A stretch of 64,000 nucleotides of DNA from Comamonas sp. (GTDB lineage: Bacteria > Pseudomonadota > Gammaproteobacteria > Burkholderiales > Burkholderiaceae_C): positions 219,531 to 283,530 of the forward strand of contig NZ_JAVXSJ010000001.1 of NCBI RefSeq assembly GCF_036643215.1, given 5' to 3'. This document shows positions 2,456 to 34,459 of the stretch, piece by piece. Each line of letters opens with the position of its first letter. Position 1 is the stretch's first letter. The notes under the pieces are model-generated. The model was not told the DNA's origin, made no database searches, and worked only from the letters and a program-made list of their open reading frames with translations. Both the position numbers and the translations under genes were made by a program.

Positions 2456-5400
2456 GTGACCTTGCATTTGACACAGTTTGAGGGTGGAAACGCTCTTAGC
2501 TCGTTCCGCGCTCAACAGCTTTTGACCGATCTGGTCGCTATCCACCCCAAGATCACCAGCGTGTCAGCACGCTTTGTGCATCTGGTGGCTACGGAGGGTG
2601 CTCCGGTTCCCGCATTGCAAGAGCGCCTGTCGGCACTCTTGACCTATGGCGATCCCTACATCGGCACAGCCGAAGGTGTGGCATTTATTGTCACGCCCCG
2701 TCTGGGAACGATCTCGCCCTGGGCCTCCAAGGCGACCGACATTGCCCGCAACTGCGGCCTGAACGTCTTTCGCGTCGAGCGCATGACCGAGTTCCGTGTG
2801 GAACTCAAGTCCGGCATCCTCGGTGGCAAGCCCGAGCTGTCGCAAGAGCAAACCGCGCAAATCGCTGCTCTGCTACACGACCGCATGACCGAATCGGTCT
2901 TTGCCACCCGTGCAGAGGCCGAGCAGCTGTTCACAACCCTGGCTGCAGAGCCCATGGAGTTTGTGGATGTGCTGGGTGGCGGCGCTGCTGCTTTGGAAAA
3001 AGCGAACAAGCAGTGGGGCCTGGCCCTGGCCGAAGACGAAATCGAGTACCTCGAAAACGCCTTCAAGGGCCTGAAGCGCAACCCCACCGATGTGGAGCTG
3101 ATGATGTTCGCGCAGGCGAACTCCGAGCACTGCCGCCACAAGATTTTCAACGCCAACTTCACTATCGACGGTGTGGCGCAAGAGAAGTCGCTGTTCGGCA
3201 TGATCCGCAACACCGAAGCCGTGTCGCCCCAGCACACGGTGGTCGCGTACTCGGACAACGCCTCCATCATGGAAGGTCATGAAGTCGAGCGTTTTACCGC
3301 CAAATTCAATGCTGGCACAGACAGCGTAAGCGCTCCTAGCTATCAAAAAAAGACTGCCATCAACCATGTGTTGATGAAAGTGGAGACGCACAACCATCCC
3401 ACGGCCATCTCTCCGTTCGCAGGTGCATCCACCGGCAACGGCGGCGAAATTCGTGACGAAGGCGCAACCGGCCGTGGCTCCAAGCCCAAGGCGGGTCTGA
3501 CTGGTTTCACCGTGTCCAAGCTCTGGGGCAGTGAAGTGGGCAAGCCTGAGCACATTGCCAGCCCGCTGCAAATCATGATCGAAGGCCCCTTGGGTGGCGC
3601 GGCGTTCAACAACGAGTTTGGCCGCCCCAACCTGACCGGTTACTTCCGCGAATATGAGCAGCAAATCGGCGACATCACCCGTGGCTACCACAAGCCCATC
3701 ATGATCGCTGGTGGTCTGGGCGTGATTGATTCTGAGCAGACGAAGAAAATTCTGTTCCCCGCAGGCACCTTGCTGATCCAGCTGGGTGGCCCCGGCATGC
3801 GCATTGGCATGGGCGGCGGTGCAGCCAGCTCCATGGCTTCGGGCACCAACGCGGCAGAGCTGGACTTTGATTCGGTGCAGCGCGGCAACCCAGAGATTGA
3901 GCGCCGTGCGCAAGAAGTCATCAACCACTGCTGGCAGCAGGGCGAGAAGAACCCCATCTTGGCCATCCACGACGTGGGCGCTGGTGGTATTTCCAACGCC
4001 TTCCCTGAGTTGACCAACGACGCGGGTCGTGGCGCGCGCTTTGATCTGCGCGCTGTGAAGCTCGAAGAATCGGGCATGTCGCCCAAGGAAATCTGGTCCA
4101 ACGAATCGCAAGAGCGTTACGTGATGGCCATTGCCCCTGAATCGCTGGCACAGTTCGCCGCATTCTGCGAGCGCGAGCGTTGCCCGTTTGCCGTCATCGG
4201 CACGGCCACCGAAGAGCGTCAACTGGTGCTGGAAGACACGGCCGTGGAATCTGGCGACCAGAAGTTCCCGGTCGACATGCCCATGGAAGTGCTGCTGGGC
4301 AAGCCGCCCAAGGTGCACAAAGATGTGACCACCGTAGAGCGCGAGCTGCCCGCGATTAACCTGACCGGCGTGGCGCTGGAGCAGGCCGTGATCGATGTGC
4401 TGGCACACCCCACCGTGGCCTCCAAGCGCTTCCTCATCACCATCGGCGACCGCGCTGTGGGTGGTCTGACCCACCGCGACCAGATGGTTGGCCCATGGCA
4501 AGTGCCCGTGGCCGACGTGGCTGTGACGCTGGCGGACTACAAGGGCTTCAAGGGCGAAGCCATGGCCATGGGCGAGCGCACACCGCTGGCCGCCATCAAC
4601 GCTCCCGCCTCGGGCCGCATGGCCGTGGCTGAAGCCATCACCAATATGCTGGCTGCGCCTATCGAGCTGTCCAAAGTCAAGATGTCGGCCAACTGGATGG
4701 CCGCCTGCGGCGAAGCCGGTGAAGATGCTGCGCTGTACGCCACGGTGAAGGCTGTGGGCATGGAGTTGTGCCCTGCGCTGAATATTTCGATTCCCGTGGG
4801 CAAGGACAGCTTGTCGATGCGTACGCAGTGGAGCGAAAACGGTGTGACCAAGAAGGTCACCTCGCCCGTGAGCCTGATCATCACTGGCTTTGCATCGATT
4901 GACGATGTGCGTACCACGCTGACGCCCCAGCTCAATGCCGAGGAAGACGACAGCACCCTGGTGCTGATCGATCTGGGCCGCGGCAAGATGCGCATGGGTG
5001 GCTCGATTCTGGGTCAAGTGCTCAACCAATCCGGCAACGAAGTGCCTGATCTGGACGACGCCAAGGATCTGATCGCTATGGTGGATGCGGTGAATGCACT
5101 GCGCGCCAAGGGCCTGATCCTGGCCTACCACGACAAGGGCGACGGCGGGCTGCTGGCGACCGTGGCCGAAATGGCTTTTGCGGGCCATGTGGGCGTGGCG
5201 CTGAATGTGGACATGCTCATCACCGAAGGCGACGGCATCTCTGACAGCCGAATGGACAGCGGCGAAGGCAAGAACTGGGGCAAGCAAGTCTCCGGCCGCC
5301 GCGAAGACCTGACCCTGCGCGCACTGTTCAACGAAGAGCTGGGCGCTGTGCTGCAGATCAAGACTGCGGATCGCACCGAAGTGCTGCAAGTGCTGCGCGA

Positions 5401-32819: not shown

Positions 32820-34459
32820 ATGTCTATGAATCGCAATGGAATGCCGGTAGTGAGCAGGCCGGGCAGCGCAGCGCAGCCACGCTGAAACGCATTGAGGCGC
32901 TACGCGAGCTGGAGCAGCGTGCGGCACAGGCATCGCAGCGCGCCAAACCCCAGTTTGAAAAGCGTGGCCAGTTGCTGCCGCGTGAGCGTGTGGCACTGCT
33001 GCTTGATAGCGGATCGCCTTGGTTGCCGCTGTGCACGCTGGCTGGCTTTATGCAAGACCGCGATGACCCGGCCAAGTCGGTACCGGGAGGCGGCATGCTG
33101 GCCGGGATTGGTTTTGTCAGTGGCGTGCGCTGCATGGTGGTGGCTAGTGATTCGGGCATTGAAGCCGGCGCAATTCAAGAAAAAGGGCTGGACAAGATGC
33201 TGCGCGTGCAAGAGATCGCGCTGCAGAACAAGCTGCCCTTCATCCATCTGGTGGAAAGCGCTGGCGCAAACCTGATGCGTTACCGCGTTGAAGGCTTTGT
33301 GATGGGCGGCGCGCTGTTTCGCAACCTAGCGCGGCTGTCTGCTGCTGGTCTTCCCGTCATCACGGTGCAGCATGGATCGGGCACGGCAGGCGGCGCGTAT
33401 ATGCCCGGGCTATCGGATGTGGTCATCATGGTGCGCGGCCGGTCACGGGCCTTTCTGGCGGGCCCGCCCTTGCTCAAGGCTGCAACGGGTGAGATTGCGA
33501 CTGAAGAAGAACTGGGCGGGGCCGAGATGCACACCGCTATCTCCGGTTTAGGTGAATATCTGGCTGAGGACGACCGCCACGCCTTGGGTCTGGCGCGTGA
33601 TGTAGTGGCACAGCTTTCACAATGGAAACAGCCGACTGCGCAATATGGAAAAGCGCCAGCAGCTATCAAACCGGGAGTGTCTGAGCCGCGTTATGACTCA
33701 CAAGAGTTACTAGGCCTGATGCCATCCCACCATCGCGAGCCGGTGGATATGCGTGAAGTCATGGCGCGACTGGTGGATGGGTCTGCATTGCTGCAATTCA
33801 AGTCCAGCTATGGCGCGGCCACGCTTTGTGCGCAGGCGCATATCGACGGCCATGCCGTGGGCCTGATATCGAACAACGGCCCCATTGATGTAGCTGGTGC
33901 CAATAAGGCGGCGCACTTCATTCAGTGGATGTGCCAACTGGGCCACCCCATCATCTATCTGCAAAACACCACGGGCTATATGGTGGGCAAGGACAGTGAG
34001 CAGGCCGGAATGATCAAGCACGGCAGCAAGATGATTCAGGCCGTGACCAATGCCACCGTGCCGCAGATCACCATCCAGTGCGGTGCCAGCTTTGGCGCGG
34101 GCAACTACGGCATGTGTGGCCGTGGCTATGCGCCGCGTTTTCTGTTCAGCTGGCCCGGCGCCAAGACGGCGGTGATGGGCGGCGAGCAGGCCGCCAGCAC
34201 CATGCGCCAGGTGACTGAGGCGGCCATGGCCCGCAAAGGCCTGCCGGTGGATGACGAGCAGATGCAAAAACAGTACGACCAGATCGTCGCCATGTTTGAA
34301 GCACAGGCCGATGTGCTCTACACCAGCGGCTTGCTGCTGGATGACGGTGTGATTGACCCGCGCGACACGCGCCAGGTGCTGTCGTTCTGCCTGGCTACCT
34401 TGCAAGAAGCGCAGCAGCGCACGGTGCGCCCCATGCAGTTTGGGGTGGCGCGCATGTAG
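32816..34459 (+). CDS. atuC: Geranyl-CoA carboxylase-like carboxyltransferase subunit
   Basis: LLPRERVALLLD, GSGTAGGAYMP, ELGGAEMH, GAGNYGMCGR, DDGVIDPRDTR; atuB-C-D-E-F gene order. Confidence 0.72.
   Translation: MNVYESQWNAGSEQAGQRSAATLKRIEALRELEQRAAQASQRAKPQFEKRGQLLPRERVALLLDSGSPWLPLCTLAGFMQDRDDPAKSVPGGGMLAGIGFVSGVRCMVVASDSGIEAGAIQEKGLDKMLRVQEIALQNKLPFIHLVESAGANLMRYRVEGFVMGGALFRNLARLSAAGLPVITVQHGSGTAGGAYMPGLSDVVIMVRGRSRAFLAGPPLLKAATGEIATEEELGGAEMHTAISGLGEYLAEDDRHALGLARDVVAQLSQWKQPTAQYGKAPAAIKPGVSEPRYDSQELLGLMPSHHREPVDMREVMARLVDGSALLQFKSSYGAATLCAQAHIDGHAVGLISNNGPIDVAGANKAAHFIQWMCQLGHPIIYLQNTTGYMVGKDSEQAGMIKHGSKMIQAVTNATVPQITIQCGASFGAGNYGMCGRGYAPRFLFSWPGAKTAVMGGEQAASTMRQVTEAAMARKGLPVDDEQMQKQYDQIVAMFEAQADVLYTSGLLLDDGVIDPRDTRQVLSFCLATLQEAQQRTVRPMQFGVARM
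33621..33678 (+). repeat. REP-like palindrome copy, in frame inside atuC
   Basis: aaacagccgactgcgcaatatggaaaagcgccagcagctatcaaaccgggag. Confidence 0.72.

Follow-up and report, generated by a model that had tools for sequence, protein, structure and literature searches.

To our knowledge, Rickettsia palindromic elements (RPEs) have long constituted the main, and almost the singular, case of selfish palindromic DNA occurring in proteins on a large scale. RPEs form a dispersed family of palindromes that are found in-frame in housekeeping genes, where they give rise to a recurrent peptide (Ogata et al. 2000, 2002, summarised in PMC10969869); the same review puts their length at ~150 bp and states that, in three of ten families, nearly half of the RPEs are genic. 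Occasional in-frame additions of peptides are also on record for intragenic enterobacterial repetitive intergenic consensus (ERIC) sequences, other enterobacterial small mobile sequences, and MITEs (miniature transposable elements with inverted repeats) that carry open reading frames (ORFs) (Delihas 2007, cited in PMC10969869). In beta-proteobacteria including Comamonadaceae, a repeat termed BRE has been characterized that measures ~90 bp, has a GC content of 69%, is often arranged in tandem, and occurs in 1-29 copies, some of which reside wholly within coding sequences (Hot et al. 2011, PMC3110155). Here, we describe a dispersed repeat of ~62 nt in a 64,000-nt stretch of Comamonas sp. DNA (assembly GCF_036643215.1, contig NZ_JAVXSJ010000001.1, positions 219,531 to 283,530; hereafter the window), in which five segments of four genes are very probably copies of this one repeat that have become part of ORFs in an RPE-like manner.

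The repeat is built on the consensus ..AAAAAAGCCTCTAGCGCTT-N7-AAGCGCTAGCAGCTATCAAAAT.., with a hairpin of 7-9 bp placed between A/T-rich arms. Conservation is limited to ~63 nt with the hairpin at their centre (consensus GAATTTTAAATAAAAAAAGCCTCTAGCGCTTATTAATCAAGCGCTAGCAGCTATCAAAATAGAAG). Both the dispersed, multi-copy nature of the repeat and its hairpin potential are established, the former by copy counts and the latter by folding z-scores. In the Comamonas genome harboring the window (G000; 4.29 Mb, 58.9% GC, 84 contigs), the exact core AGCGCnnnnAGCTATCAA is matched 107 times, compared with 0 matches for a reversed-pattern control, and the window contains 9 core matches at no more than 2 mismatches against an expectation of 0.69. 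A first nhmmer profile returned 457 hits in the genome at E<0.01, 239 of them at <1e-5, which correspond to ~420 distinct copies once double hits on the palindrome are merged; the usual location of these copies is between genes. The consensus folds with -16.9 kcal/mol in the sense and -19.4 kcal/mol in the reverse orientation (z ~-3.3 to -3.9), the hairpin itself comprising 9 bp (z ~-3.9), and RNA of the reversed repeat consists of a hairpin followed by a U-run, resembling an intrinsic terminator. No Rfam covariance model matched the window at the gathering threshold. Likewise, no description of a Comamonas, Acidovorax, or Comamonadaceae repetitive extragenic palindrome (REP) or MITE of this kind was found in the literature.

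A reading of the window from its letters alone, referred to here as the original prediction, had held that the repeat invaded protein-coding sequence in frame at five places, namely in purL, twice in a gene of the DUF5682 family, at the end of a cyclase gene, and in an atuC gene. To avoid circularity, the profile was rebuilt from 98 intergenic copies, all located outside the window, and then searched against the window. This independent profile recovered all five sites, with E-values in the window of 1.8e-11 to 3e-4. The sites and their host genes are:

2456-6466, plus strand: purL, host gene, encoding phosphoribosylformylglycinamidine synthase; Pfam GATase_5, FGAR-AT, and AIRS_C; match to solved PurL 1T3T at E 1.4e-86.
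3289-3353, plus strand: repeat copy in purL, in the AGC TAT CAA frame; independent profile E 3e-4.
11229-13784, plus strand: DUF5682 gene, host of two copies; Pfam DUF5682 at E 6e-256.
12200-12263, plus strand: internal repeat copy of the DUF5682 gene; independent profile E 1.8e-11; peptide IESNRAVAQDGKALVAIKEGA, residues ~326-346.
13712-13766, plus strand: repeat copy in the C-terminal tail of the DUF5682 gene; E 6.6e-6 for 13712-13752; LPQALIDQALKATNFEA makes up most of the tail.
21554-22783, plus strand: GGDEF diguanylate cyclase gene, host gene; Pfam GGDEF at residues 228-380.
22745-22811, minus strand: reversed, degenerate repeat copy at the 3' end of the cyclase gene; E 9.8e-5 for 22811-22768.
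32816-34459, plus strand: host gene for an AtuC-like acyl-CoA carboxylase beta subunit (carboxyltransferase); Pfam Carboxyl_trans; best solved match and closest solved relative the geranyl-CoA carboxylase beta subunit 5IKL_B.
33612-33671, plus strand: repeat copy in the AtuC-like gene; E 1.8e-8; peptide SQWKQPTAQYGKAPAAIKPG.

The identities given to the host genes (PurL, DUF5682, cyclase, and carboxyltransferase) are upheld by Pfam, and all five peptides quoted in the original prediction are present in the window, at coordinates a few bases off those first given. The internal and C-terminal peptides of the DUF5682 protein, ESNRAVAQDGKALVAIKEGA and PQALIDQALKATNFEA, are encoded at 12207-12266 and 13719-13766, and the AtuC-like peptide PTAQYGKAPAAIKPGV at 33632-33679. 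The PurL peptide of 12 residues lies at 3317-3352, four residues (TAIN) ahead of the second 12-mer quoted for this protein, and the last residues of the cyclase, AIESVANAALSA, are encoded at 22745-22780 by a reversed copy and directly followed by a TAG stop. As had been proposed, the two DUF5682 copies and the AtuC-like copy share one common frame, GCT ATC AAA, with the PurL copy being read in another. The proposed local break in codon bias is found as well: GC content at third codon positions (GC3) amounts to 0.43, 0.38, 0.43, 0.08, and 0.35 in the segments versus 0.66-0.77 in the remainder of each gene. The segments are presumably translated as part of their host proteins.

Comparison with orthologues upholds the RPE-like origin suggested for these peptide insertions and indicates that they are old, being common to several species and, for purL, to several genera. 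Distant taxa carrying the same peptides without an indel, which would contradict such an origin, were looked for, and distant taxa turned out to be devoid of the peptides. Lineage-restricted indels, as expected, exist at every site; the expected size of 15-20 residues did not hold, since the proteins often gain just 5-12 residues net (PurL +8-12, AtuC-like protein +7-11, the ribonucleotide reductase NrdJ discussed below +5-11 or none, DUF5682 up to ~+21). In sequence alignments, the coding copies are absent from more distant orthologues and occupy what appear to be variable loops, linkers between domains, or C-terminal tails. As for structure, low-confidence stretches in AlphaFold models and alignment gaps relative to solved structures are compatible with, and do not argue strongly for, a placement in surface loops or linkers.

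In purL, the segment is present in 24 of the 24 Comamonas genomes compared and encodes S-A-P-S-Y-Q-K or a close variant thereof, e.g., QAPSYQK, KAPSYQK, or SPSYTR. Three genomes (G014, G015, and G017) feature a version that is 12 nt longer than the form in G000 and matches the full repeat. A copy at the identical site and in the identical frame occurs in two Acidovorax genomes, Ottowia, Curvibacter, Polaromonas, and several metagenome-assembled genomes (MAGs); the copy in an Acidovorax MAG, GCCAAAATGGCCTCTGGCGCTTATCCATCAAGCGCTAACAGCTATCAAAAGAGTAGT, scores 55 bits (E 9e-16), and different genera have conserved the peptide S-A-x-S-Y-Q-K. No copy exists in the Hydrogenophaga, Limnohabitans, Ramlibacter, and Variovorax species compared, and beyond Comamonadaceae the segment is lacking, as seen in PurL of Ralstonia, Paraburkholderia, Herbaspirillum, Gallionella, and Salmonella. 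Since site and frame are the same across genera, the insertion is ancient, or recurrent at one site, and not recent. The closest named PurL belongs to C. brasiliensis. Alignment to a solved structure leaves a gap at the repeat site, and in a model of a 432-residue PurL fragment, which is poor with a mean predicted local distance difference test (pLDDT) score of 60.5, the segment is placed at the tip of a beta-hairpin formed by strands 186-200 and 212-226.

At the internal site of the DUF5682 gene, recognisable repeat DNA is present in 8 Comamonas genomes (G002 reads GAGTCAAATCAGCCTCAAACGCTTGATGGTGAAGCGCAAGCAGCTATCAAAAAC). Homologues with the pattern ..ESN....D..A..AIK.. are found in Comamonas sp. 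26, C. suwonensis, C. fluminis, C. resistens, and C. testosteroni, the first two harboring the closest named proteins. The orthologues in G005 and G008 (70% identical) lack the internal repeat, the former being 57-63 nt shorter than the repeat-bearing genes, and the loop is short or unrelated in relatives from Delftia, Diaphorobacter, Variovorax, Polaromonas, and Rubrivivax. The tail ..LPQALIDQALKATNFEASSAKV is confined to the same Comamonas subclade as the internal copy; the DUF5682 proteins of Variovorax, Polaromonas, and Rubrivivax terminate at LLGV.A. In the AlphaFold model (mean pLDDT 79), the internal segment is predicted to comprise a helix end and a loop, with pLDDT <50 at residues 337-348. 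In the modelled tail, the final eleven residues (841-851) have pLDDT <50 just past the repeat-derived residues 831-846, for which the score averages ~69, falling to ~43. At its 3' end, the gene overlaps the start of a VWA gene (13781). It belongs to an apparent three-gene operon (9899-15007) made up of AAA_5 (a MoxR-like ATPase, 9899-11059), DUF5682, and VWA_CoxE (13781-15007). The DUF5682 protein also features an acidic, highly variable insert at residues ~120-170, with pLDDT <50 over 135-167.

The corresponding loop of the AtuC-like carboxyltransferase is common to seven Comamonas orthologues. It exceeds the loop of out-group homologues and MccB-type paralogues by 8-11 residues and that of the solved Pseudomonas GCC-beta and MCC-beta chains (5IKL_B, 3U9R_B) by 7-8. 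In the alignment to solved carboxyltransferases, the segment constitutes a gap at a position which we take to be where the N-terminal crotonase-like half joins the C-terminal one. At the DNA level, the left half of the repeat is kept in G022 (GGAAAAGGCCTGAAGCGCTTGATATATC) and the right half in G000 (AAAGCGCCAGCAGCTATCAAAC); as different halves are kept in different orthologues, the sequences point to descent of the loop from a single ancestral full copy that decayed separately in each lineage.

Two genes in the window possess a 3' end built from the repeat, the cyclase gene and a gene next to an intergenic copy at 55590. The cyclase ORF in G000, G023, and G001 runs 12 codons into the reversed copy and stops at the copy's TAG (22781-22783 in G000). 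The G018 gene stops earlier, with the copy just downstream, and in G002, G012, G022, G024, G007, and G011 the gene has an unrelated tail and no copy. Within 300-nt stop-centred pieces from ten orthologues, the cyclase copy reaches E 1e-6 in G023 and 4.6e-6 in G000, and it includes the typical GGCCTnTTTGACTCAnAAATC flank. The copy at 55590 is one of several intergenic copies in the window:

55590-55654, minus strand: intergenic copy, the best reference in the window; E 2.3e-15; folds with -21.7 to -23.7 kcal/mol, z ~-4.
39660-39715, plus strand: intergenic reference copy; E 4.6e-12.
52919-52973, plus strand: intergenic reference copy; E 9.2e-9; orthologous in 7 Comamonas species.
6659-6724, plus strand: weaker intergenic copy downstream of purL; E 3.6e-5.

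The plus-strand gene upstream takes its final codons and TAA stop (..YWGHTH-stop; 55585-55600) from one end of the 55590 copy, and the copy is found at the orthologous position in 7 Comamonas species. Orthologues of this gene in G002 and G012 end in ..YWGHV-stop, followed by ~78 extra bases and then by a decayed copy. The copy at 52919 bears the right-hand box AGCTATGGA instead of AGCTATCAA, and an ATG at ~52970 is apparently the start codon of the next gene, whose predicted product looks like a TadA-type deaminase by its first 20 residues; this arrangement of box and start is conserved in 7 Comamonas species while the remainder of the copy decays. Many copies have a right flank (..GCTATCAAAAnnGGAG..) that frequently terminates in GGAG, similar to a Shine-Dalgarno sequence, with an ATG a few bases further on, as exemplified by AAGGAGCAACAATG at 39722-39735 of the window.

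Coding copies are not confined to the window. When every profile hit inside an ORF that reaches at least 150 nt to both sides and shows coding-like GC3 is taken as coding-like, ~38 of the ~420 copies in G000 (~8-9%) fall into this class. Recognisable hosts include the class II ribonucleotide reductase NrdJ, ThiL, an Hsp70-like protein, a fused formate-dehydrogenase subunit, ComEC, and GluQ-tRNA synthetase (GluQRS), as well as DprA, methylmalonyl-CoA mutase, PBP1C, RarA, CobN, LpxB, MutL, RsmB, MoeA, and AroE. The frame GCT ATC AAA (..QAxAAIK.., with peptides such as SEEKTPAAQSRQAQAAINSGI and SEVNQPAAQAQKAPAAIKNS) is used by 22 copies, AGC TAT CAA (SYQ) by 4, and the third sense frame by 1; at most 11 copies are antisense. 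Among the 98 intergenic copies, in contrast, the AAIK frame is stop-free in 41, the SYQ frame in 19, and the third sense frame in 33. Avoidance of stop codons alone is therefore insufficient to account for frame use, and what peptide is encoded, or how the copy is oriented, must play a part as well. NrdJ provides a sixth gene with the pattern seen in the window: the repeat fills a variable linker in ten Comamonas species, and the linker of other species is of similar length and rich in Pro, Ala, Lys, and Glu. In the fused formate-dehydrogenase-type subunit, an in-frame copy (contig C14:19939-19989, DLKSKSDVALMDKAHAAI) is located between the NuoE-like and NuoF-like halves. The 2 coding copies of the window that were put to folding are no more stable than shuffled sequence. 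The general claim that coding copies have lost the hairpin was dropped because hairpin integrity in 8 coding versus 99 other copies did not differ significantly (p = 0.17 and 0.54).

The copies are highly diverged. Outside the core, by which they had been selected so that its conservation is partly built in, they share a mean pairwise identity of 46%; a twin with at least 90% identity exists for only 2 of the 107. Every copy examined is common to G023 and mostly to more distant species too, and the combination expected of recent mobility, near-identical copies and presence or absence in close relatives, was not found. By these comparisons, the insertions are old and positionally stable. At the level of the family, 81 genera were sampled; the core has at least one match in 16 of them, in several cases a single one, and reaches tens to ~200 copies in roughly a dozen. 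Within Comamonas, exact-core counts spread ~100-fold (G000 107, G003 84, G001 17, G007 1, G126 2), which would reflect either lineage-specific expansion or decay of the repeat family. No terminal inverted repeats or target-site duplications were seen at the copies examined. A link to a REP-associated tyrosine transposase (RAYT) was rejected since the sole Y1_Tnp (IS200/RAYT-like) gene of the genome (contig C3:219012-219761, 249 aa, beginning MARLPRLTLANMPHHIIQRGNN) is not flanked by copies: the 18 kb inspected around it contain a single, weak hit (E 0.0036), ~6.6 kb downstream. In G047, a genome from another genus, 27 consecutive plus-strand copies extend over 0.98-2.97 Mb of contig C1, and copies at 0-0.98 Mb are mostly on the minus strand, among the matches listed. 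Such apparent polarisation of orientation by replichore would hint at single-strand insertion coupled to replication. It was not retained as a general feature; it is weak in G000 (orientation versus GC skew, odds ratio 1.6-3.6, p ~0.01-0.02) and absent in the complete Comamonas genome G003.

Like RPEs, the Comamonas repeat is a dispersed palindrome that occurs between genes as well as in-frame inside unrelated housekeeping genes, and it gives a recurrent peptide in a preferred frame at sites that appear compatible with the fold. It differs from RPEs in length (~62 nt rather than ~100-150 bp), in host (a free-living beta-proteobacterium of 59% GC rather than an AT-rich obligate intracellular alpha-proteobacterium), in the genic share of copies (~8-9% rather than nearly half, in three families), and in that at least one insertion, in purL, is common to several genera. 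Because size and host clade differ, homology to RPEs is not claimed, and the kinship would be a functional one, a likeness by behaviour. With REPs and their doublets (REPINs), the repeat shares a short imperfect palindrome, high copy number, a mostly extragenic location, and a frequently terminator-like position at gene ends; in contrast to REP/REPIN-RAYT systems, no copy-flanked Y1 transposase gene and no doublet organisation were noted. While REP families are usually species-specific, the core of the Comamonas repeat is common to many genera. ERIC sequences and MITEs are likewise small non-autonomous repeats that occasionally lie in-frame and add peptides, yet these are sporadic cases, whereas the Comamonas repeat contributes a few dozen copies per genome with a strong frame preference; the terminal inverted repeats and target-site duplications of MITEs were not identified. 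BRE is also a repeat of beta-proteobacteria including Comamonadaceae with copies in coding sequence. Identity with BRE was rejected, as the latter is GC-rich, ~90 bp long, and tandem, and the repeat described here is ~62 nt long with A/T-rich arms, non-tandem, and present in several hundred copies.

According to the explanation we favor, copies would rarely land in coding DNA or recombine into it, and the survivors would be those that keep the frame open and leave the fold undisturbed. Two filters may operate on them. The reversed copy, being terminator-like, would fit gene ends, as in the cyclase gene and at 55590, and not gene interiors; among sense frames, the Ala/Gln/Leu-rich one (..QAxAAIK..) is used far more than stop-freedom predicts. 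Once fixed, a segment would evolve as protein, with free drift in the AtuC-like gene and NrdJ and a conserved peptide in PurL. Several points weigh against this explanation. The coding census is based on ORF length and GC3 rather than on curated gene calls, and some of its members are spurious, e.g., an antisense-like ORF at C18:55503; translation of the segments, too, is read from sequence only. The PurL fragment model is poor overall, and the near-consensus copy in Acidovorax purL is surprisingly well kept for an insertion predating the genera. Neither a clean empty site nor any target duplication or terminal inverted repeat was seen, clean empty/filled pairs not being obtained because all insertions examined are old. 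As 62 is not divisible by three, extra changes are required for an open frame. Finally, the net gain is usually smaller than the element's ~21 codons, which falls short of demonstrating a simple 62-nt insertion; linker residues already present were either lost or overwritten by the copy. The latter would be the outcome of short-patch recombination or gene conversion from other copies into already variable loops and linkers, with no transposition-like insertion, so that net length would barely change. This agrees with NrdJ, where the repeat replaces a Pro/Ala/Lys/Glu-rich linker of similar length in other Comamonas, with the presence of shorter and variable PurL, AtuC-like, and DUF5682 loops in repeat-free taxa, and with the lack of target duplications and terminal repeats. 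We nevertheless consider such overwriting unlikely: recombination requires flanking homology, of which none is evident, the 57-63 nt by which the G005 DUF5682 gene is shorter fit insertion of a whole element, and linker length changes fast anyway, such that later trimming accounts for the same data.

A different objection concerns the two weakest matches in the window, those in purL (E 3e-4) and the cyclase gene (E 9.8e-5), the latter of which did not appear among the hits of the first genome-wide profile at E<0.01. That they are chance resemblances or convergent peptide motifs is extremely improbable and largely refuted, given that full-length copies of up to 55 bits exist at the same purL codons elsewhere, that a 12-nt deletion relative to G014, G015, and G017 explains the purL form in G000, and that the cyclase copy gains E-values of 1e-6 and 4.6e-6 in orthologue pieces together with its typical flank. 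It has also to be asked whether selection acts on the nucleic acid rather than merely tolerating the peptide. The conserved box (AAGCGCnnGCAGCTATCAA) and the hairpin might represent a functional DNA or RNA signal, bound by a host protein or recognised by an enzyme as a single-strand hairpin. The same core recurs at tens to ~200 copies in roughly a dozen genera with zero control hits and in copies otherwise only 46% identical, although this figure derives from core-selected copies; GCT ATC/T is kept in nearly all repeat-bearing AtuC-like, NrdJ, and DUF5682 orthologues, different species retain intergenic copies at orthologous sites, and the well-kept Acidovorax purL copy points in the same direction. 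Identity at synonymous sites was measured in repeat-bearing orthologues only, comparing the seven box codons with the rest of the gene. In DUF5682, it amounts to 0.95 in the box versus 0.70 in the flanks, the box value being reached by 3 of 809 flank windows, a result that counts for selection on the nucleic acid and against the explanation we favor. In contrast, the values are 0.60 versus 0.71 in PurL (181 of 199 flank windows reach the box value), 0.71 versus 0.67 in the AtuC-like gene (61 of 183), and 0.67 versus 0.75 in NrdJ (124 of 164). A general constraint on the box at the DNA level inside genes was rejected on these grounds: the excess is seen in DUF5682 only, and nucleic-acid function inside genes is therefore not the general rule. 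Moreover, the box decays in the AtuC-like gene of G012, G024, and G002, in NrdJ of G003 and G012, and in an intergenic copy of G002 and G018, some Comamonas genomes have only 1-2 core matches, and the folding of the two coding copies of the window that were tested fails to exceed that of shuffled sequence. We regard selection on the nucleic acid as quite improbable, and similarly improbable is the wider proposal that box and hairpin form a Comamonadaceae-wide nucleic-acid signal rather than decaying selfish DNA, with loops of essential proteins such as PurL being set by a constraint that is not of protein origin.

Insertion of a dispersed repeat followed by filtering for frame, orientation, and fold remains the explanation we favor, and by analogy the data support RPE-like behaviour by a repeat family for which no publication was found. 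The same behaviour would thereby extend to free-living, GC-rich bacteria, in which a few dozen in-frame copies per genome occupy core genes including purL, nrdJ, mutL, dprA, and moeA, and in which frame and orientation preference are measurable. The segments account for local drops in GC3 and for lineage-specific indels in otherwise conserved genes, and gene callers may be misled by them where the repeat gives stop or start codons at the ends of genes. The interest of the family lies in its scale, its frame bias, and the time depth over which single insertions can be traced. Because each site can be compared between species and genera, a time series is available—an AtuC-like copy that drifts, a DUF5682 box that is conserved, and a PurL peptide that is fixed—which may be used to study how random insertions become loops of proteins.

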